From Spirochaetales bacterium (GTDB taxonomy: Bacteria; Spirochaetota; Spirochaetia; SZUA-6; RPPD01), in NCBI GenBank assembly GCA_016930675.1, contig JAFGGG010000043.1:8748-72747 (forward strand): a DNA stretch of 64,000 nucleotides, written 5' to 3'. The position numbers and the translations under genes were made by a program. A model generated the notes under the pieces. It worked only from the letters and a program-made list of their open reading frames with translations, did not search any database and had not been told where the DNA came from. This document shows, in pieces, positions 45,756 to 55,858 of this stretch (positions are counted from its first letter, which is position 1; each line of letters opens with the position of its first letter).

Positions 45756-46964
45756 TCAATCCTCAAGAATAATTATTTCCACCCGCCGGTTCTGCGCCAT
45801 ACCCTCTTCAGTATCATTACTGGCTACGGGCTCGGTTGCTCCTCTTCCTTCATAAAGAAAGCGCTCGGCAGGTATGCCTTTGCTTACCAAATAATCCACT
45901 ATGGTCTTGGCCCGCTCTACGGAAAGGGTATACTGTGATTCTTCGCTTCCCCAGCGCGCCGTATGGCCGACAACCAGAAAGGTTCTTCCTTCTATTTTTT
46001 TAAGAGCTTCCACAAGAGCGTCGAGTCTACTGTATTCCTCAGGCTTAACTACCGCTTTATCCGCGATGAAATGTATTTTGTTCAGAGTAAGTGCAACTCC
46101 CTCTTCACGTTCTTCGACTACGATATCGGGGATATTCGAATCCTCCAACTCTTCGATAATATCCTTTTTTATCTCATCCCTGTCCATCACCACAATCATA
46201 TCGAACCAGGTAAGAATAAAGCCTTTGTATAATTCCTCCGTGCCGTTATCATACATATAGGTCTCTTCCACCAGATCCCTCATAAACTGCGGCCGTTTGC
46301 CTTCACTGTCAAAATAAATGGTCACTACATGCTTGCCGCTGATATTGCGGATGCGTTCATCGCCGTATACATCATCCCCGGCTTTATAGCGCATAGCGTA
46401 TTGCGCCTGAATAACATCGCACTCCACTCCGTTATACATTCCCTTGCCCTTATATTCATATTCACAATAAAAAGGCACTCTGGTGAAGACACCGTCATGT
46501 AAAGGCTCAACGATCCGCATACCGTAAGCCCGCCACTTTTCACCGACTGTTACGGCTTTTTTGGGAAATACCGGAAAACCGCGCAGCAGAGGATAAGCCT
46601 GACTCTCATGAATTACGTAATGTCCGTCGGAATTAATCCTAAACCTGGACTCGATGGTTTTATCGATTCTGCGGGCAACATGGCGCGTTTCCCGCTTCAT
46701 CTCCTCCAACACATAAAATTTACCCTGATACACCTCATTCTGTCCGGTCTCATCTTCCGCGACCGTTAACACGCCTCTCACCTCCCGGTAGATATATCCC
46801 TGATAGCTGCCGTTAACGCGTTTACTGAGGTCATGTCTCTCCGTAAGCTTGAATTTTTCTCCGGGGATAAATTGAATTTCAAAGGTCTGCTGGGAATAAA
46901 TGAAAGCAGGAATTACAAAGCAAAGCATAAATATAACGCATACAACCTTTTTTCTTATATGCAT
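45756..46964 (-). CDS. OmpA-family protein with spirochaete-type N-terminal domain
   Basis: Signal peptide; C-terminal GHT, LSVERA, NRRVEI. Confidence 0.88.
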   Translation of the reverse strand: MHIRKKVVCVIFMLCFVIPAFIYSQQTFEIQFIPGEKFKLTERHDLSKRVNGSYQGYIYREVRGVLTVAEDETGQNEVYQGKFYVLEEMKRETRHVARRIDKTIESRFRINSDGHYVIHESQAYPLLRGFPVFPKKAVTVGEKWRAYGMRIVEPLHDGVFTRVPFYCEYEYKGKGMYNGVECDVIQAQYAMRYKAGDDVYGDERIRNISGKHVVTIYFDSEGKRPQFMRDLVEETYMYDNGTEELYKGFILTWFDMIVVMDRDEIKKDIIEELEDSNIPDIVVEEREEGVALTLNKIHFIADKAVVKPEEYSRLDALVEALKKIEGRTFLVVGHTARWGSEESQYTLSVERAKTIVDYLVSKGIPAERFLYEGRGATEPVASNDTEEGMAQNRRVEIIILED

Positions 46965-46975
46965 AAATCCGCTCC

Positions 46976-47533
46976 TTACTTTAATTTTAGCACAACACCC
47001 TGCCTAAAACTATGCATGTCTGTAAATGAATCCTGTCCACTATACCCTATAATAAGCTGCAGTTCTTCCTGGCCGTCTTTTATAAAGCCTGATGTTTGCA
47101 ACTCCACTTCCAACGTAGTCAGATTATCCGTTTCTTTTACTGCCACATCGGTTACCACACTTTCCGTAACAAACAGATCTTCATGGCCGTGTCCGACTCC
47201 GATCTGCTCTTTAAACTGCGGCCGGCCGTCTTTGACAAAACCGATAATAATATGAGCATTATTCATTACTTTAGAACCCAACCCAAGCGAAACCCAGCCT
47301 GTTGTTTGCGCCACCAGAGCAAAACTGACTGATTGCTTTTTACGCGCCGCATAGAGAGTACATTGCGCATACTCCTTTTTAAAGCTGTATTCATCTTGAG
47401 TCACCACACCGTCTATCTGAGGCGTATGAGCGGTAACAGCCAAACCGTCTGCGGACTGGGGCGAATTGCCGCAATTAAAAAACAGCAGACAGGATAATAC
47501 GGACAAACATAGCGCACATAGTATTAAACGCAT
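46976..47533 (-). CDS. DOMON-domain lipoprotein (heme-type)
   Basis: Lipobox FFNC; GWVSLGLG...MNNAHIIIG and C-terminal MH, candidate Met/His heme ligands. Confidence 0.8.
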   Translation of the reverse strand: MRLILCALCLSVLSCLLFFNCGNSPQSADGLAVTAHTPQIDGVVTQDEYSFKKEYAQCTLYAARKKQSVSFALVAQTTGWVSLGLGSKVMNNAHIIIGFVKDGRPQFKEQIGVGHGHEDLFVTESVVTDVAVKETDNLTTLEVELQTSGFIKDGQEELQLIIGYSGQDSFTDMHSFRQGVVLKLK

Positions 47534-48136: not shown

Positions 48137-48260
48137 AGTGGTTGTACTGTATACAATTCAAAAAATAAAATCAAGACACAAAAATCATACTTCTATTTTA
48201 CTGCTTGCTTAATTCGAACAGCACAATTATAATGGTGCTATAGAAAAAGGAGTATATGGC

Positions 48261-49694
48261 ATGCCCGCCAGAAAGTTCACACCTATAACCCGCAAGGTGA
48301 ATGTAATTATCGTGATCTCCTTGCTCCTGGGCATCGGCGGCATAATCGTATTTTTCTCTCTGGCCTTGATACGGGAGATTGCCGCTTCGCTTGAGAAAAA
48401 CTTAAAGCAACACACAGACACGGTTAAAGTCTCAATCAGAAGTATTATGGTGCCGGGATACGCCGATATAGCTACCCGCTACTTTGAGGAGGTAACCGCG
48501 GCGAATCCAGATGTATCGGTCAAACTGTTCAGAGAGAACGGAAAACCAGCATTTTCAGACGACAACACTATCCGCACGGTTAATGAAAACCAGGGTTATG
48601 AAAGATTTTCCCCTAACGAGCCCCGGATCGACGTTTCGGATATCCCGGAACAGCCGTATTTTAAAGACGCGTTAACCGTCTCTCCTGAAGAAAAGCTGGT
48701 ATCTTTTCAAACGCAAAAAGGCGACGCGATTTTTTTCACAGTCTATGAAAAGCTGCAGAACCGCCCCAGCTGCATGAAATGCCACGGCGCCACGCATACA
48801 ATCCGCGGTGTAATCTGCATTGAAAGCAATATTACCGCATCGATTAATAAGCAAACTCTCTATCTGATAATCTCATACTCTCTTTTTGTGGTTTTATTGA
48901 TCGGCCTTACCGTAATTCTCACTCAATTCCTCAGACGCACGGTTATTCTGCCGGTACAGACCATAGGCGCCGTATGCACAAACGTTACCGCGGGTCAGTT
49001 CGATAAACGTGTCGATATAAAAAATAACGACGAGATCGGAGTATTAGGCAGTACAGTCAATCAAATGGTACAGGGACTCTATGAAAGATTCAAACTCTCC
49101 AAGTTTGTCTCATCCTCAACGCTGCAGTCGCTTAAAACCGAGAAGGCCGGAGAAAAACTGCCCCTCACTATTCTGTTCAGTGATATCCGCGGTTTTACGT
49201 CTTATTCCGAGAAAAAACCGCCCGAGGATGTGGTTGAATCATTAAACAAGATGCTCAACTTTCAAACTGAAATCATTACTGAAAACGGCGGTGATGTGGA
49301 CAAATATGTAGGTGATGAAATTGTGGCTATTTTCACCACCGAAAATCCCGAACTTTCCGCCTGCCGTACCGCCTTGCTCATTCAAAAGGAGCTGTCAGAA
49401 AAAAGCGGTTCAGCATACAGCGGTTTACAGGTGGGAATCGGTATTAATGTGGGAGAGGTTATTTTAGGTATGATCGGATCTGAAAAACGCGCTGATTATA
49501 CGGTTATAGGCGACAATGTAAATACCGCCTCCCGTCTTTGCAATGCGGCCAAAGCCGGACAAATTATTATCGCCCACAGTATCTATCAAAGGGTTAAAGC
49601 TTCAGTGCTCACGGACGGACCGTTTCGGGTGCGGGTAAAAGGAAAAGATCAGTACTTGCGTGTTTATCTGTTAAAGGCGCTTAAAAAGGAGTGA
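48261..49694 (+). CDS. Class III adenylate cyclase with periplasmic c-type heme (CxxCH) sensor and HAMP domain
   Basis: TM-periplasmic (CMKCH)-TM-HAMP (DEIG.L); FSDIRGFT, DKYVGD, DYTVIGDNVNTASRL. Confidence 0.92.
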   Translation: MPARKFTPITRKVNVIIVISLLLGIGGIIVFFSLALIREIAASLEKNLKQHTDTVKVSIRSIMVPGYADIATRYFEEVTAANPDVSVKLFRENGKPAFSDDNTIRTVNENQGYERFSPNEPRIDVSDIPEQPYFKDALTVSPEEKLVSFQTQKGDAIFFTVYEKLQNRPSCMKCHGATHTIRGVICIESNITASINKQTLYLIISYSLFVVLLIGLTVILTQFLRRTVILPVQTIGAVCTNVTAGQFDKRVDIKNNDEIGVLGSTVNQMVQGLYERFKLSKFVSSSTLQSLKTEKAGEKLPLTILFSDIRGFTSYSEKKPPEDVVESLNKMLNFQTEIITENGGDVDKYVGDEIVAIFTTENPELSACRTALLIQKELSEKSGSAYSGLQVGIGINVGEVILGMIGSEKRADYTVIGDNVNTASRLCNAAKAGQIIIAHSIYQRVKASVLTDGPFRVRVKGKDQYLRVYLLKALKKE

Positions 49695-50225
49695 GTGATG
49701 AGACAGGTATTATCAGTTATCTGCTTATGCGCGATTTTTTGGAACTGCGCACCGGAAACAAAAAAATATCTGATACCTGAAGATTACGCTTCATGGAAAA
49801 GAACCACCAATGTAGAGTTGAACTACCCCATACCAGGACACCTGGAGCATTACCGCAAGATATTCATCAACGAAATCGGAGAAAAAGTGGCAGTGACTAC
49901 TGTAGACGGCAAGAAACACTATACCTATCCTACGGGAACAATTATTGTAAAAGAGGTATATCCCGCGCTTGAATATAAAGCAGGCGATAAACCGGGGATG
50001 CTTACGGTCATGATAAAAGATTCCGCTCATCCCCAAGCTCGCGGCGGCTGGATATGGATAGTGCAGGATTTAAAGAATCCTCTCAACGAATACACTGTTT
50101 TTACAAGTGATTTTTGCCTTGATTGCCATACGGATGCCAATCGCAGACACGATCTGGGACCGGGCAATCCGGATGAAGAATTTCGCGATTATGTGTTTTT
50201 TCCTTACGAGGGAGGTGTAGAGTAA
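49695..50225 (+). CDS. Cytochrome P460-family lipoprotein
   Basis: Lipobox FWNC; PEDYASW, YP.GTIIVKE, VMIKD, GGW.W, CLDCH, DYVF. Confidence 0.85.
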   Translation: MMRQVLSVICLCAIFWNCAPETKKYLIPEDYASWKRTTNVELNYPIPGHLEHYRKIFINEIGEKVAVTTVDGKKHYTYPTGTIIVKEVYPALEYKAGDKPGMLTVMIKDSAHPQARGGWIWIVQDLKNPLNEYTVFTSDFCLDCHTDANRRHDLGPGNPDEEFRDYVFFPYEGGVE

Positions 50226-50270: not shown

Positions 50271-50342
50271 CCGAAAAAGCCACCGTCTACTGACCATCTT
50301 TTTAACCGCTCCTATAGGTGGCGGCTTTTTCGGAAGCAAAAA
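50271..50342 (-). repeat. Dispersed hairpin repeat family A, copy 4 (possible bidirectional terminator)
   Basis: CCGAAAAAGCCACC...GGTGGCGGCTTTTTCGGAAGCAAAAA between convergent genes. Confidence 0.7.
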
Positions 50343-50346
50343 AGAA

Positions 50347-50934
50347 CTAGATTTTTATATCCATTGAATTTTCAATGGAAATTTTCAAGAATTTTATTAT
50401 ATCGGCTTCTTTAATATCAATTGAACTGGCGCGGGAAAGTCTTACTGCATTTAAAATTCCTAAAAAAAAGACCATTAGAGCCGTCTCAATAAAGCGTTTG
50501 TTAAATCCATTAATAGTCGGTTTGCTTTTCGAAATGGAGCGAATAAGCTCGTAGATCATAGTACTTAAGACCTCGATCTTTTCTTCAATTTTCGTGAAAG
50601 CGATAGCTTCGGATAAGAGTATATTAATAAGATCCACATCCTTAAGTATTTCCGGAAGAAATTTTTCAATAATAGCCTTAAGCTTGGATTCATCGCTTTC
50701 CTGAGAGGAAACGGTCTGTAAAAGCCGGTCATAAAGATCTTTCCAGCCTTCCTCGACAATTACTTTCATTATTTCATCTTTGCTTGGAAAATAAGTATAA
50801 ATACTTCCCACCGGCAGGTTGGTTGCTTTTACTATATCCGATATAGATGTGTTAAAAAAACCTTGTTTTGAAAAGAGTGTTTTCGAAGCTTCCAAGATTA
50901 AAGCGCGCTTATTTTCATCCTTTAATCTCGCCAT
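50347..50934 (-). CDS. TetR/AcrR-family transcriptional regulator
   Basis: ILEAS..LF..GF..TSI.DI..GSIYTYFPSKDEI. Confidence 0.93.
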   Translation of the reverse strand: MARLKDENKRALILEASKTLFSKQGFFNTSISDIVKATNLPVGSIYTYFPSKDEIMKVIVEEGWKDLYDRLLQTVSSQESDESKLKAIIEKFLPEILKDVDLINILLSEAIAFTKIEEKIEVLSTMIYELIRSISKSKPTINGFNKRFIETALMVFFLGILNAVRLSRASSIDIKEADIIKFLKISIENSMDIKI

Positions 50935-51055: not shown

Positions 51056-52117
51056 TTAATCGGAATACTGCTTGCTTATTTCATAAAACCGGTTTTTTTG
51101 TTCTATAAAAATATCCACGATTTTGGGATCAAAATGCAATCCGGAATCCGTTTTTATTATTCGTTCTGTTTTTTCTTTTGTATATGCTTCTTTATATATT
51201 CTTTGATTCATCAACGCGTCATAAACGTCCGCCAAAGCAACTATGCGTGCTTCCAATGGAATACTCTCAGATTTTAAGCCCTCAATATAGCCGCTGCCGT
51301 CCCATTTCTCATGATGGTATAAAGCGATATTTTTCGCCATAGCATCAATCTCCGGTGAATCCAGGATTTTAAATCCAATGACAACATGCTCTTTCATCTT
51401 TTCATATTCGTCTTCCGAGTATTTACCTTTTTTCTTCAAAATATTATCCGGAATACCCACCTTTCCTATATCATGCAGCGGTGAATATACTTTTATCTTT
51501 TTGATAAAATCCAGACTACAGCCGTAATTCTCAGCTAAAAGCACGGAATATGCGCTTACCCGTTTTATATGGTTACCCGTGTCAATATCATTATAAATAT
51601 TTGCGTTTTCAAGCGCCGTAATTAAGGCAACCGTTAAATTATTTACTTTCTTTGTCTTTTCTTCTACCAGATGAATAAGGTGTATCTCACTGTTTTGCAG
51701 TAAGGAATTCTTTACTTCCAACTCATTCAGCACCCGTTTAAGCTTTAAATGAGTGTTAACCCTGGCAATCAATTCAGCTTTATTAAAAGGTTTGGTTATA
51801 TAATCAACCCCGCCGACCTTGAATGCCTTTACAATGTTGTCTACATCTCCCAGTCCGGTAACAAAAATAATTGGAATTTCCTGCAGCAATTTGTTGTCAT
51901 TCAAATACTGGGCAACCTGTATGCCACTCATTACCGGCATCATAATGTCCAGGAGAATCAAATCAGGCAGATTGTCCGTTCTATTTTCAAACAGTTCAAT
52001 CACATCCTGTCCGCTTTTGGCCATCATTATGTCACAATCCGCGTTCTTTTGCAGAATTGAAGCAAGAAGTTTCCTGTTTTCCGCTACATCATCAACAATA
52101 AGTACTTTAGCTGCCAT
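51056..52117 (-). CDS. Response regulator with HD-GYP phosphodiesterase domain
   Basis: REC (VDD, LLDIMMP, KPF); HDIGK, HHEKWDGSGY, ADVYDAL. Confidence 0.92.
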   Translation of the reverse strand: MAAKVLIVDDVAENRKLLASILQKNADCDIMMAKSGQDVIELFENRTDNLPDLILLDIMMPVMSGIQVAQYLNDNKLLQEIPIIFVTGLGDVDNIVKAFKVGGVDYITKPFNKAELIARVNTHLKLKRVLNELEVKNSLLQNSEIHLIHLVEEKTKKVNNLTVALITALENANIYNDIDTGNHIKRVSAYSVLLAENYGCSLDFIKKIKVYSPLHDIGKVGIPDNILKKKGKYSEDEYEKMKEHVVIGFKILDSPEIDAMAKNIALYHHEKWDGSGYIEGLKSESIPLEARIVALADVYDALMNQRIYKEAYTKEKTERIIKTDSGLHFDPKIVDIFIEQKNRFYEISKQYSD

Positions 52118-55100
52118 TATTTATCAATCCTTCCATTTTTCGCATTAATGTATCCAATCCCTCTTCGTCAAAGTTTTCCGCTATTTTTTCAAGCTCTTCC
52201 TTAATCGAAACCGCGACGTCCGCGGCCTGCTCCTGTGAAAGCCTATGAGCTATTTCCAACAATTTTTTTTGATTAAAAATCTTATAATTTTTTTTCAACT
52301 CGGATAAGACTCGTTTAAGCGAGGTCTTAGTTTTATTATCCAGCTCTGTCTTTTTAGCATTCTTGGCATAAGCGAGTACTAAATTTTTTACATCATGGAT
52401 TGTTTTTATAAATTTATCTTGATTAATCGGTTTCGATATATAACCGTTACATCCCGCTTTGGTATATTTCAAGGCATCGCCTTTCATGGCATATGCCGTG
52501 AGCGCAATAACATACAGGTCTTTCAAGTCTTTATGACCCCTGATTATTTTAATTACTTCAAGACCGTCCATAATAGGCATCTGCATATCCAACAGCAGCA
52601 GATTATACTTCTTATCGTTTTTCAGTCCTTCTTGCAGTAAATCCAAGACAAGCCGGCCGTTATTAGCGATATCAAAACTTATGTTTAACTTTTTCAAATA
52701 AATTCCAATCAGCTTTTGATTCAATTCATTATCTTCCGCGATCAACACCCTAAAGTCATTTGAATTTTCAGCTCGTAACGTTGGAGTTAATCCCCGAATT
52801 TCCTCTAAATAATAGCTTGGTATCTTATTAACCAGTTCTTTTACCACGGACACTAACGGAATTATTTTATTAATTCGAGCATCTTCTTTATTCATCTCTT
52901 TATCGATCTTTAAAAATATATCGTAAATTTCACTTATATTAAGATTGCCGTAAACACTTTTCAGGTCATGACTCAGTTTTTTAATCTTGTCCGGATCATT
53001 ATGCAATACAGCCTGTTCCAATTCGGAGATTCTTTCAGGAAGTTTTTGTATTCCTTGAATAATTAATTCCTTCAGCTGAGGATCCCCTCCCGCCTGTTTC
53101 AACCAGTACTGAACCATCCTCTCGTCACGAAGTTTTTTCCTTACTTGGGTTACCGGATTCTCAGCTATCTGTTTTAAGGGAATTTTTATAGTGAATGTGG
53201 AACCGGCCGCGATCCGGCTCTCTAAAAAAATCCTGCCCCCCATTTTTTCTGCGAGCCCTTTGGAAATGGCCAGTCCCAGGCCGGTTCCGAAATATTCCCT
53301 GGTGGCAGAATTGTCAACCTGAGAAAACGGTGAAAAAATTGTCTGTTGTTTGTCTGCGGCGATTCCGATTCCCGTATCACTCACGCTGATTGTGAGTGTC
53401 TTCTTGTTTTCATACCGGCAATCAATACGAATTTCACCCTGCTTTGTGAATTTAAACGCGTTGCTCACCAGATTCAATATTATTTGGTTGACCCTTCTTT
53501 CGTCACCATACAGATATTCAGGAACTGATTCGGCGACTTTAATAGCAAAGCCGACATTCTTTTCACTGGCTTTGAGAATAAACATTTTTTTAATATCATC
53601 CAAAAGATCTCTGATAGAAAAGCTGGCGTTTTCGAACTCAATCTTATTCGCTTCCATTTTTGAGAAATCAAGAATGTCATTTATAATTTCCAGCAGACTG
53701 TCGCCTGCTTTCATGATTATTTTCAATTTATCCTTTTTCTGGGGATCTTTCTCTTCTTCCAGTAACAACTCGGTAAATCCGATGATCGAATTCATAGGCG
53801 TTCGAATTTCATGACTCATATTCGCTAAAAATTCACCCTTAGTCTTATTGGCGCTTTTGGCAGCCTCCATGGCGGCCAGCTGCAGCTCTTCCGCTTCCTT
53901 CTGCTGCTTGAAAAGCAAAGCGCCTTTAAGCGAGCTGCTTATATAACCGCGCAGAGTTTCATACACTGTTTCGATTCGTGAACCCAATTCAAAGAAGATA
54001 AAGCCGAAGTGCTCATCCCGAAAGAACAACGGCATCAGCACCATGGAGTATCTTTCACGAGTCGGCAAATATTTACGCTGACATAATTCAAGCGTGGGAA
54101 AGTGAACACTACCCTCTTTGGAAGTAAAACTTTTATGTTTATTAAATGCCAGCAGTACTTGAGACGTATGAGGAACATCCCAAAAGTATTTTGATATCTT
54201 TTTAACCGGTCCGTCAAAAAAGGCAATTGTACACATATTAATTCCCATATACGGCAGTTGTTCTTTTATATCCTCAAGCAGCTGATTCAATTCGAACGAA
54301 GAAATCAAGACACTGCCCACCGATCGCAAGGTCCATACCATATGTTTTTCATTGACGCTTTGAAATGGATCGGATCTAAGCAGCATTTCACTTAAAAAAA
54401 TTTGAATTTTTTTATAAAGCAGCTCAAGAAAAAGCATGGCATTATTATCTTTTAAAGTGAGAACCGCATTGGTATATAAGGTTTTTATTACACTCTGCCA
54501 GAACGATTCATGCTTTGTCATTCCCGTTTTTGAAATCGGCAGATCGCCAATAAGATAAAAAAAGGCTTTATTCTTATAATCTTGGTTTTTTAAACATTCG
54601 ATCATACCATCCAGTATTTCCTTCAACCAGTCAAAAAGCGCTGTATTATTTATTCCTTTGGCTTTTAATTCTCGCGTCGTATTATCAATGATCCGCGCTT
54701 TGTTTTCTTCCAAATCCATGTGTGAGCTGTCATCGCACGCGGGTTGATGTTCTATTGTGGAATCAATATACAGCATGGAAGGGGAAAAACAGCCGCACGA
54801 CTGTCTGATTACCGCTTTGGAAGGCAGATACGAAATTTCAGGCACCTTTTCTCCATTAATTCGAGCCAGCACAATTTCCAGTGCTTTTCTGGCTTGGTTG
54901 TGCATAGGTTGGGTAACCGATGTCAATGGCGGATTGAAAACCTTTGCCAGTTTAATATCGTCGAAACCGGTAATGGCAATATCCTGCGGTACTCTGATAC
55001 CCTTTCCCTGTAAATACTTCAAAGCTCCTAATGCCATATCGTCATTAGCCGATACCACGGCATCACAGTGTTGTTTCCTTTCTTCGAGCAAGATGCGCAT

Positions 55101-55661
55101 GGCTTCGGCTCCCTTATCGTAGACAAAATTACCGGTAACAACCAAATCAGGATTAAAGGGCAGATTGTGTTCCTCCAGTGTTTTTTTATATGTTTCAAAG
55201 CGAATATCCGCTTCCTGATAACCCTCAGGCCCTCTGATATGGGCGATATGTTTGTATCCGTGATCAACAATGAGATGCTTGACCACTTCTTTCATTCCGA
55301 ATTTATTATCAAGTAAAACACTCGGGATGCCTTTTACCGCCTCCCCCATACTGACGGTCGGCAGAGACTGAAATCTTTCACAAAACATAGTTGCTTCTTC
55401 CATAGAAATAAAACAGCACATAGAACCCGTTAAAATGACTAAGCCATCCAAATTTTGTTCATCAACCAGACTGTAACTAAGATGATGCTGGTAGTCATAA
55501 CCGTAGGGTGAACCGAGTGCTTTACCCACTATGAATATTAAATTCACATCCAGCTCAATTGCATTATCTACCATATTCTTCCAAATATTGGCCTGATAAT
55601 CTTCATCAAGCATCCCGATAAGCATACCTATTGTCGGTCGGTCCTTTTTATGTTTTACCAC
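52107..55661 (-). CDS. Cytoplasmic hybrid histidine kinase: LacI-type sugar-binding domain, HisKA, HATPase, HPt, REC
   Basis: ANDDMALG, GFDD, IRQSCGC; SHEIRTP; NAFKF, DTGIG, GTGLG; SHDLKS; LLDMQMP. Confidence 0.9.
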   Translation of the reverse strand: MVKHKKDRPTIGMLIGMLDEDYQANIWKNMVDNAIELDVNLIFIVGKALGSPYGYDYQHHLSYSLVDEQNLDGLVILTGSMCCFISMEEATMFCERFQSLPTVSMGEAVKGIPSVLLDNKFGMKEVVKHLIVDHGYKHIAHIRGPEGYQEADIRFETYKKTLEEHNLPFNPDLVVTGNFVYDKGAEAMRILLEERKQHCDAVVSANDDMALGALKYLQGKGIRVPQDIAITGFDDIKLAKVFNPPLTSVTQPMHNQARKALEIVLARINGEKVPEISYLPSKAVIRQSCGCFSPSMLYIDSTIEHQPACDDSSHMDLEENKARIIDNTTRELKAKGINNTALFDWLKEILDGMIECLKNQDYKNKAFFYLIGDLPISKTGMTKHESFWQSVIKTLYTNAVLTLKDNNAMLFLELLYKKIQIFLSEMLLRSDPFQSVNEKHMVWTLRSVGSVLISSFELNQLLEDIKEQLPYMGINMCTIAFFDGPVKKISKYFWDVPHTSQVLLAFNKHKSFTSKEGSVHFPTLELCQRKYLPTRERYSMVLMPLFFRDEHFGFIFFELGSRIETVYETLRGYISSSLKGALLFKQQKEAEELQLAAMEAAKSANKTKGEFLANMSHEIRTPMNSIIGFTELLLEEEKDPQKKDKLKIIMKAGDSLLEIINDILDFSKMEANKIEFENASFSIRDLLDDIKKMFILKASEKNVGFAIKVAESVPEYLYGDERRVNQIILNLVSNAFKFTKQGEIRIDCRYENKKTLTISVSDTGIGIAADKQQTIFSPFSQVDNSATREYFGTGLGLAISKGLAEKMGGRIFLESRIAAGSTFTIKIPLKQIAENPVTQVRKKLRDERMVQYWLKQAGGDPQLKELIIQGIQKLPERISELEQAVLHNDPDKIKKLSHDLKSVYGNLNISEIYDIFLKIDKEMNKEDARINKIIPLVSVVKELVNKIPSYYLEEIRGLTPTLRAENSNDFRVLIAEDNELNQKLIGIYLKKLNISFDIANNGRLVLDLLQEGLKNDKKYNLLLLDMQMPIMDGLEVIKIIRGHKDLKDLYVIALTAYAMKGDALKYTKAGCNGYISKPINQDKFIKTIHDVKNLVLAYAKNAKKTELDNKTKTSLKRVLSELKKNYKIFNQKKLLEIAHRLSQEQAADVAVSIKEELEKIAENFDEEGLDTLMRKMEGLINNGS

Positions 55662-55858
55662 AGAATCATGTCCTTCACAGTACAATACTAGTATAAGCAT
55701 TATGGATTTAATTTAAAAATGTTTTTATCAAGCAATTTTAATATTGAATTCTTTTATTGCATAACGACTGTTTCTCCATATACTACATAGTATATGCGCT
55801 TCAATTTATAAAAAAACTCCACCGTGAATGGAAAAGCGCGACAATAAAGGAGGAAATT

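Follow-up and report, generated by a model that had tools for sequence, protein, structure and literature searches.

A cytochrome P460-family lipoprotein gene paired with a c-haem Cache adenylate cyclase gene in spirochaetes: a candidate two-haem periplasmic sensor with cyclic AMP output

The stretch of DNA analysed here, referred to as the window, comprises 64,000 nucleotides of a Spirochaetales bacterium (GenBank assembly GCA_016930675.1, contig JAFGGG010000043.1, positions 8,748 to 72,747 of the forward strand). It carries two neighbouring genes, one for a class III adenylate cyclase with a HAMP domain and a periplasmic c-haem sensor domain, the other for a lipoprotein of the cytochrome P460 family (Table 1). 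An earlier note, made from the sequence alone, had drawn attention to this pair. We propose, at a probability of roughly 0.6, that the two-gene operon encodes a two-haem periplasmic sensor with cyclic AMP (cAMP) output, in which the P460 protein would act as ligand-binding or redox partner of the Cache receptor.

Table 1. Features of the cyclase-P460 operon, in window coordinates (aa, amino acids; ORF, open reading frame; AF2, AlphaFold2).
Feature	Position	Strand	Basis
AAGGAG ribosome-binding site of cyclase gene	48247..48252	+	read from sequence; 8 bases 5' of cyclase ATG
sCache_heme-HAMP-class III adenylate cyclase, 477 aa	48261..49694	+	ORF, Pfam, match to solved cyclases
Predicted sCache_heme periplasmic c-haem sensor domain, aa 36-197	48366..48851	+	orthologue profile, AF2 model, Foldseek
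Met63 codon, candidate distal haem ligand	48447..48449	+	invariant; alignment to 3b42
CMKCH haem c attachment motif (Cys171, Cys174, proximal His175)	48771..48785	+	invariant in orthologues
HAMP domain, aa 223-273	48927..49079	+	Pfam PF00672, E 7.8e-10, 39.4 bits
Class III cyclase catalytic domain, aa 301-471 (ATP type)	49161..49673	+	Pfam; alignment to 6fht, 2w01
AAGGAG ribosome-binding site of P460 gene, within last cyclase codons	49686..49691	+	read from sequence
Cytochrome P460-family lipoprotein, 176 aa from GTG 49695	49695..50225	+	ORF; Pfam PF16694; AF2; Foldseek
Cys18, lipobox cysteine	49746..49748	+	column conservation; lipoprotein status inferred from motif only
Arg54, aligned with distal capping Arg50 of McP460	49854..49856	+	alignment to 6hiu
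Lys86 in GTIIVKE, aligned with haem cross-linking Lys	49950..49952	+	alignment to 6hiu, 6e0y, 6e0x
Thr104 at proton-relay carboxylate position of active P460s	50004..50006	+	aligned with NsP460 residue 131
CLDCH haem c attachment motif of P460 protein	50115..50129	+	invariant in orthologues
Terminator-like hairpin and T run after operon	50306..50321	+	pattern scan, weak

For the cyclase, the earlier note had read from the letters a periplasmic CMKCH motif, a HAMP domain, the two metal aspartates and the Lys/Asp and Asn/Arg pairs of the active site, all of which were borne out. The Pfam domain Guanylate_cyc (PF00211) matches residues 301-471 with 85.2 bits (cut-off 21.9), the solved adenylate cyclases 6fht and 2w01 match the C-terminal half of the protein at an E value of 1e-28, and residues D308, K348, D352, D418, N421 and R425 are invariant in 46/46 cyclase orthologues, at positions that agree with the alignment to 6fht and 2w01. 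We take D308 and D352 to be the metal-binding residues, K348 and D418 those specifying adenine, and N421 and R425 those acting on the transition state. Because the metal, base-specifying and transition-state residues are invariant, an active, ATP-specific cyclase is expected. The CMKCH motif (residues 171-175) is flanked by two hydrophobic helices, at residues ~13-35 and ~198-222; on these, and on the long helices found there in the AF2 model, the assignment of the membrane topology is based. In the whole genome, seven cyclase-domain matches above the Pfam cut-off and 22 matches to cyclic nucleotide-binding domains were counted.

The nature of the periplasmic domain emerged from an alignment of the first 215 residues of the window cyclase with 44 orthologues. 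Cys171, Cys174, His175 and Met63 are invariant in these 45 sequences, and CxxCH at the CMKCH site is also kept in 46/46. A profile built from the 45 sequences matches the sensor domains of GSU0582 and GSU0935 of Geobacter sulfurreducens (3b47 and 3b42) at an E value of 0.002, and, at E values of up to 1, PF21563 matches 42 and PF11845 41 of the 45 sensors, with best values of 3.7e-9 and 1e-5, respectively. A sub-threshold, Tll0287-like Pfam match spans residues 53-179 of the cyclase. The AF2 model of the sensor (predicted local distance difference test, pLDDT, 84.5) consists of a long N-terminal helix, a sheet, a short helix with the CxxCH motif between strands (residues 169-175) and a C-terminal membrane helix; Foldseek relates it to the WalK Cache domain (template modelling score 0.65 on the target), 3b42, 3b47 and 5b82 (Tll0287). 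Finally, the invariant Met63 aligns with chain residue 26 of 3b42, which corresponds to the distal ligand Met60 of GSU0935 if the numbering offset is taken from His144, chain residue 110 in the printed alignment. Judged by profile, alignment and model, the periplasmic part of the cyclase is a c-haem Cache domain of the sCache_heme / GSU0582 / GSU0935 / Tll0287 type, with its haem predicted to be held by His175 and Met63.

This likeness extends to the architecture: as in the two Geobacter proteins, a Cache/PAS-like periplasmic domain is set between two transmembrane helices, CxxCH sits on a short helix late in the domain, and HAMP comes next, with Met63 at the place of Met60 in GSU0935. According to the available part of PMC8396549, the haems of GSU0582 and GSU0935 are high-spin in the oxidised state and become low-spin, with His/Met ligation, on reduction, and the Met ligand is displaced by nitric oxide (NO) and, in the reduced form, by CO. 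The family (DUF3365/Tll0287) was named sCache_heme by Deshpande, Xing, Gumerov, Crane and Zhulin (bioRxiv 2026; PMC12889525), and their preprint attributes NO-sensor-like properties to fused sCache_heme domains and lists in a figure legend a cyclase output such as the window protein has. Unlike the window protein, whose output is cAMP synthesis, GSU0582 and GSU0935 serve chemotaxis; the window copy also differs from this family in being too divergent for the Pfam cut-offs and in having a P460 partner. Taken alone, the cyclase is therefore a member of an already known kind of sensor, and only the partnership with P460 is new.

That the second gene encodes a P460 lipoprotein with CLDCH, GTIIVKE and the cross-linking lysine in place, as had been read from the sequence, is well founded. 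Cytochrome_P460 (PF16694) scores 52.1 bits on the protein against a cut-off of 27. Searches of the PDB, with the single sequence as well as with a profile, returned exclusively P460 and c'-beta cytochromes, and with the AF2 model (pLDDT 80.9) as query, P460 or c'-beta structures fill Foldseek ranks 1-22 (probability 0.99-1.00). Best in both sequence and fold are P460 of Methylococcus capsulatus (McP460; 6hiu, 9hrk) and the cytochromes c'-beta 6hih and 7ead. GTIIVKE occupies residues 81-87 and CLDCH residues 141-145. CxxCH, Lys86 and Arg54 are invariant in 38/38 P460 orthologues, as are His49, Met106 and a few other residues, and the column of the lipobox residue Cys18 holds Cys in 33/38, the remainder resembling ordinary secreted forms.

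Lys86 aligns with the lysine of GAILVK in McP460 (6hiu) and with that of GTVIVKE in NsP460, the P460 of Nitrosomonas sp. AL212 (6e0y, 6e0x). We take these two lysines to be Lys78 of McP460 and Lys106 of NsP460. Both numbers appear, along with Lys70, among the cross-linking lysines in Table 2 of the P460 review PMC11928373, which like the preprints is drawn on here in excerpt; in the c'-beta proteins, unlike the window protein, a Phe or Met stands in place of the lysine (PMC11928373). A distal capping residue is likewise present, Arg54 being aligned with McP460 Arg50, whose capping role is given in the same Table 2. The position of the catalytic carboxylate tells a different story. Oxidation of hydroxylamine is described there as requiring a proton-accepting carboxylate, Glu96 in NeP460 and Asp102 in McP460, and Ala131 is found in its place in the inactive NsP460. 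The window protein has Thr104, which aligns with NsP460 residue 131 (where the mutant entries 6e0y and 6e0x show Q or E), and among the 38 orthologues this column reads T 27, Y 6, V 3, D 1 and A 1, hence a carboxylate in 1/38. By the published criteria and these alignments, we are dealing with a Lys-bearing P460 that should bind ligands and should not oxidise hydroxylamine.

This bears on a suggestion of the earlier note, which had considered the P460 protein as an accessory sensor or as a converter feeding the cyclase haem. In the latter case an active hydroxylamine oxidase would hand NO or electrons to the cyclase haem and the system would report hydroxylamine. The invariant cross-linking lysine and the polar Arg cap, as in the active McP460, fit such a role, as would a gene for a hybrid cluster protein in the genome (G000:C5:50165-51856; Pfam Prismane, E 1e-179). 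Hybrid cluster proteins are linked to the detoxification of NO and hydroxylamine in anaerobes. However, Thr104 stands at the carboxylate position, acidic in a single orthologue; NsP460, cross-linked but free of the carboxylate, is inactive, and the exchange Glu96Asp likewise abolishes the activity of NeP460 (PMC11928373). In addition, an ammonia- or methane-oxidising context is not evident (amo and hao were not searched for), and a crude scan for CxxCH in ORFs of at least 90 residues found no multi-haem protein. We therefore consider conversion of hydroxylamine very unlikely, whereas the functional link that the note had postulated between the two proteins is supported by the conservation of the pair.

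The two genes are joined closely. Behind the ribosome-binding site of the P460 gene follow the cyclase stop codon TGA (49692-49694), then GTG (49695) and ATG (49698), so that the P460 gene does begin directly after the cyclase stop, as had been noted; ATG 49698, which would give a product of 175 residues, is the more likely start because of its Shine-Dalgarno spacing. As a side observation, both ORFs share one reading frame in the window, separated by the single TGA, and read-through of this codon would yield a cyclase-P460 fusion with the P460 signal peptide as a third membrane helix. Most other loci differ from the window in this respect, since there a 4-base gene overlap places the two genes in different frames. 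The flanking genes, NDK upstream and TetR (50347-50934) downstream, are on the opposite strand, and the operon therefore consists of two genes. The hairpin listed in Table 1 is weak evidence of its end, the pattern scan having found one such structure against a mean of 2.7 in shuffled sequences; in a promoter scan, sites were no commoner than in shuffles.

A search of the neighbourhoods of related P460 genes, which the earlier note had proposed as a check, revealed that the pairing is kept. In a sample of 61 genomes of the same order, including that of the window, a P460 match was found in 24; all 18 near-full-length matches (L003-L020) have the cyclase gene directly upstream on the same strand (one of them cut by the contig start). 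A scan of a public collection with one genome per species yielded 56 orthologous loci (L031-L086), 48 of which have sensor, HAMP-cyclase and P460 in this order. Four of the eight exceptions are due to contig limits, with no upstream DNA (L070, L083) or a contig that begins inside the cyclase gene (L033, L084), and in three the cyclase is decayed or fragmented (L075, L077, L081); the eighth, L085, has a split P460 gene and no cyclase within 3 kb. One cassette locus stems from a record titled Candidatus Moduliflexus, that is, from another phylum, and two further ones from records titled 'Bacterium UASB14' and 'Bacterium UASB270'. The adjacency persists at 30-50% protein identity, and in two genomes (G036 and G012) both genes have decayed. 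A 4-base stop/start overlap was counted at 39/53 junctions, where the start codon was taken as the one nearest the stop, a choice that favours small gaps. The pairing is far above chance, and, as far as gene arrangement can tell, translation of the two genes is coupled and they are passed on together.

For distant P460 relatives from Gammaproteobacteria, Bacteroidota and others (L087-L110; 25-37% identical in the best aligned segment), no such sensor was found within 3 kb. The scan that produced these loci required GT..KE in its pattern, which makes the conservation of the lysine among them uninformative. An apparent cyclase-P460 fusion in G056, an open frame of 759 residues, was rejected as a spurious frame, the two genes lying in different frames.

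Searching the relatives with the sensor domain also gave weaker sensor matches, next to which lie weakly matching P460 genes of another, divergent subfamily. One such gene each is found in G005, G006 and G007 (L026, L115 and L116), which belong to the same family as the window's genome; its product, a lipoprotein ~30% identical to that of the window, has GT..VKE and CxxCH motifs of its own, and the gene immediately precedes one for an sCache_heme-HAMP-cyclase. Of 401 genomes sampled from the phylum, 18 matched this subfamily, and in 10 of them the match lies directly upstream of an sCache_heme sensor protein (9/9 checked by Pfam are HAMP-cyclases); with G440 included, 11/18 genomes pair the divergent P460 with a sensor. 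G440, a complete genome, encodes an sCache_heme-HAMP-Hpt-HATPase_c kinase followed by a P460 gene on the same strand (L141:872-4166). A kinase of the same domain composition is found in G055 and G056 (L111, L112), tail to tail with the divergent P460 gene, and the main cassette is also present there. Across both gene orders and with either output class, P460 stays with the sensor domain, and the link is therefore to the sensor and not to the output. This gene-order evidence is the strongest argument for a P460 protein that would work with the periplasmic domain. Two side observations on this subfamily may be added: a 155-residue ORF lies just 5' of the kinase-P460 pair of G440, on the same strand, and extra copies in G301 (L139) and G336 (L137) adjoin genes for DUF5777 (membrane beta-barrel) proteins, not sensors.

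Could cyclase and P460 be neighbours by descent only, with unrelated functions? Most loci come from one phylum, so that shared ancestry inflates the counts, and the distance correlations given below show common descent only. On the other hand, adjacency has survived down to 30-50% protein identity, both genes have decayed together in two genomes, and the association is common to two paralogous subfamilies of opposite gene order, extends to another output enzyme and reaches into a second phylum. Mere descent thus appears hardly credible, and a functional coupling of the cyclase with the P460 protein is highly probable.

Whether the P460 protein acts directly on the sensor domain is a question of its own, and a number of observations weigh against the partnership we propose. 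In G001, a genome of the same genus, the cyclase is intact (88% identity over the HAMP and catalytic domains) and stands beside a crippled P460 gene: its product of 112 residues (L027:1501-1836) has suffered an in-frame internal deletion of about residues 52-116 and lacks Arg54, Lys86 and Thr104. This shortened protein (P0014), found on eight contigs, still has the lipobox and CxxCH; the core of the sheet is missing. G018 combines an intact cyclase orthologue with a mere P460 remnant, and G011 has a related cyclase and no P460 match. The kinase gene of G055 and G056 converges with the P460 gene, so that the two are not co-transcribed. The window's own sensor stays below the Pfam cut-offs, with 19.3 bits (cut-off 24.1) for PF11845 and 15.1 bits (27) for PF21563; searches of its own genome with these two models gave no match, not even the window copy, and are hence uninformative. 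A fusion of P460 and sensor was looked for among longer proteins and none was found, which is weak evidence.

Two further results come from computed contacts and tree comparisons. Co-folding of the two periplasmic domains, another check named in the earlier note, gave a pass, but a weak one: with both haems included the score was 0.34 (runs 0.45, 0.34 and 0.14), compared with 0.01 for the best control, at a partner pLDDT of at least 80 and with runs agreeing in at least 70% of contacts. In calibration, the mark was reached by 116 of 157 solved complexes and 2 of 215 mismatched pairs, with 18 of the 157 complexes and both passing mismatches at 0.60 or under; this calibration was made without ligand and without own-made alignments, and the haem-bearing run with own alignments lies outside it. 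The model thus provides weak support for a contact between cyclase and P460. Mirror-tree correlations over the window and 48 loci were 0.654 for P460 and sensor, 0.699 for P460 and catalytic domain, and 0.635 for sensor and catalytic domain. The partial correlation of P460 with the sensor given the catalytic domain is 0.38 (reached in 0/2000 permutations), and that with the catalytic domain given the sensor is higher, 0.485. Since P460 tracks the catalytic domain at least as well as the sensor, there is no specific co-evolution signal beyond shared descent.

These findings would also suit a P460 protein that is a co-expressed periplasmic scavenger or buffer, protecting the cell or setting the local ligand level without touching the sensor, so that the cyclase haem would be the sole sensor. 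The persistence of the cyclase with a crippled or missing P460 in G001, G018 and G011 and the weakness of the co-fold pass are in line with this. So is the literature as excerpted, in which carboxylate-free P460/c'-beta members are described as gas binders (PMC11928373) and both sCache_heme preprints (PMC12889525 and 10.64898/2026.05.25.727664) cite cytochrome c' as scavenging NO in the periplasm. Yet a free scavenger needs neither a 4-base overlap with one particular sensor gene nor a lasting attachment to one sensor type across two gene orders and both kinds of output; moreover, the single P460 gene of the genome sits in the cyclase operon. Taken together, we regard a pure scavenger as unlikely and a direct action of P460 on the sensor domain as probable.

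A last group of observations concerns the haem itself. The genes for cytochrome c maturation that the earlier note had asked for were found, with CcsA and a ResB-like gene side by side in the genome of the window. In L041, ResB and CcsA follow directly after the cassette, and in L010 and L059 CcsA is adjacent to it. As a phylogenetic marker CcsA was discarded, being non-discriminating: it occurs in 52/61 genomes overall and in 20 of the 21 whose P460 match has an E value of 1e-30 or lower. The CxxCH scan of the 78%-complete genome listed 23 ORFs with the motif, three of which have a strongly hydrophobic N-terminus, namely the cyclase, the P460 protein and a membrane 4Fe-4S protein. Going by these motifs, the assembled 78% of the genome may encode no c-type cytochromes other than the cyclase and the P460 protein. 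The supply of their haem is a further difficulty for the proposal. In the 78%-complete genome of the window, searches found neither ALAD (HemB) nor porphobilinogen deaminase (HemC), and they found no ALAD in four cassette-bearing relatives of the same family (G001-G004) that are 92-95% complete; it is present in G026. With these enzymes not found, the haem supply is unexplained. CcsA is kept in all five genomes without an ALAD match (G000-G004), which may be haem auxotrophs that retain cytochrome c maturation for very few clients. In these genomes haem may be imported, and if so, cytochrome c maturation may be kept mainly for cyclase and P460.

How might the partnership work? According to our proposal, the lipid-anchored P460 protein would dock on, or sit beside, the Cache sensor domain. 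Its haem, presumably open, five-coordinate and of low potential, would bind a small molecule, most likely NO, and the state of P460 would change the sensor's His/Met haem in its coordination or its redox state. That change would move the transmembrane helices and HAMP and so set the activity of the cyclase, with P460 as binder or tuner and not as hydroxylamine-oxidising enzyme. Because of the published work on both families, P460 and sCache_heme, NO is our best guess for the physiological signal, although by analogy only and at somewhat less than even odds. A stricter variant of the idea is a haem-to-haem relay in which the P460 haem would be the primary input and would pass its state by contact or electron transfer to the Cache His/Met haem as a mere transducer; this we hold to be quite unlikely. 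A bolder form of this variant follows from the review, according to which the cross-link forms only after peroxide or oxygen and NeP460 made anaerobically lacks it until treated with peroxide (PMC11928373): in these spirochaetes the Lys cross-link would irreversibly register exposure to oxidants and thereby reset the sensor's set point.

NDK, a DOMON lipoprotein, an OmpA-like protein, TetR, a response regulator and PepF, the neighbours of the operon in the window, are not conserved beside the cassette elsewhere, apart from synteny among close relatives and DOMON matches in L025 and, more weakly, L039. The DOMON-domain protein (46976-47533, minus strand; Pfam DOMON, E 3e-10), two genes upstream, has a signal-peptide-like N-terminus, and the OmpA-like gene (45756-46964) adjoins its gene. 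Downstream, a response regulator with an HD-type (HD_5) domain (51056-52117, minus strand; Pfam) overlaps the end of a 1197-residue ORF (52107-55700, minus strand) that, judged from its translation, resembles a hybrid sensor kinase.

The earlier note had known of no characterised system with this pairing. For the sensor taken by itself this does not hold, its family being known from the Geobacter chemoreceptors and from PMC12889525 (available part), but the statement stands for the partnership. A literature search combining cytochrome P460 with adenylate cyclase, sensor domain and spirochaetes found no published description; the excerpts of the review PMC11928373 mention neither gene cluster nor genomic context, spirochaetes or lipoprotein, and the text of both sCache_heme preprints (PMC12889525 and 10.64898/2026.05.25.727664) is without 'P460', although their supplementary tables might list such neighbours.

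Among characterised P460 proteins, NsP460 (6amg), the 'halfway house', is similar in its P460 fold, C-terminal CxxCH, lysine at the cross-link position and absence of a distal carboxylate (Ala131 there, Thr104 here). It differs in sequence (~17-19% identity in Foldseek alignments) and in its cap, Phe76 in place of Arg54; moreover, the window protein is predicted to be lipid-anchored and comes from a spirochaete, not a nitrifier, and from a signalling operon, and its cross-link is a prediction. McP460 shares the Arg cap (Arg50) and the lysine of GAILVK (taken as Lys78), but unlike the window protein it has Asp102 and oxidises hydroxylamine (PMC11928373).

Receptors with a partner encoded apart are known as well. 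The Cache_heme-HAMP receptor of Pseudomonas azotoformans binds NO and has a separately encoded partner, as the available text has it (10.64898/2026.05.25.727664), but there the partner is a cytoplasmic Ser/Thr kinase docked on HAMP, whereas that of the window is periplasmic and itself a haem protein, and the window receptor has its own enzymatic output. The same logic of a small haem protein encoded beside the signalling enzyme that it controls is found in the stand-alone NO sensors, H-NOX with kinases or diguanylate cyclases and NosP with kinases. These, in contrast, contain haem b, are located in the cytoplasm and have unrelated folds, and the enzymes under their control carry no haem themselves.

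P460 is known as a hydroxylamine-handling enzyme of nitrifiers and methanotrophs, and its role elsewhere is unresolved. As a two-gene system with soluble domains that can be produced, the operon makes the question directly testable. If the partnership is true, the P460 fold would gain a signalling role, the sCache_heme receptors would gain their first periplasmic accessory protein, and an input would be defined for cAMP signalling in free-living spirochaetes.

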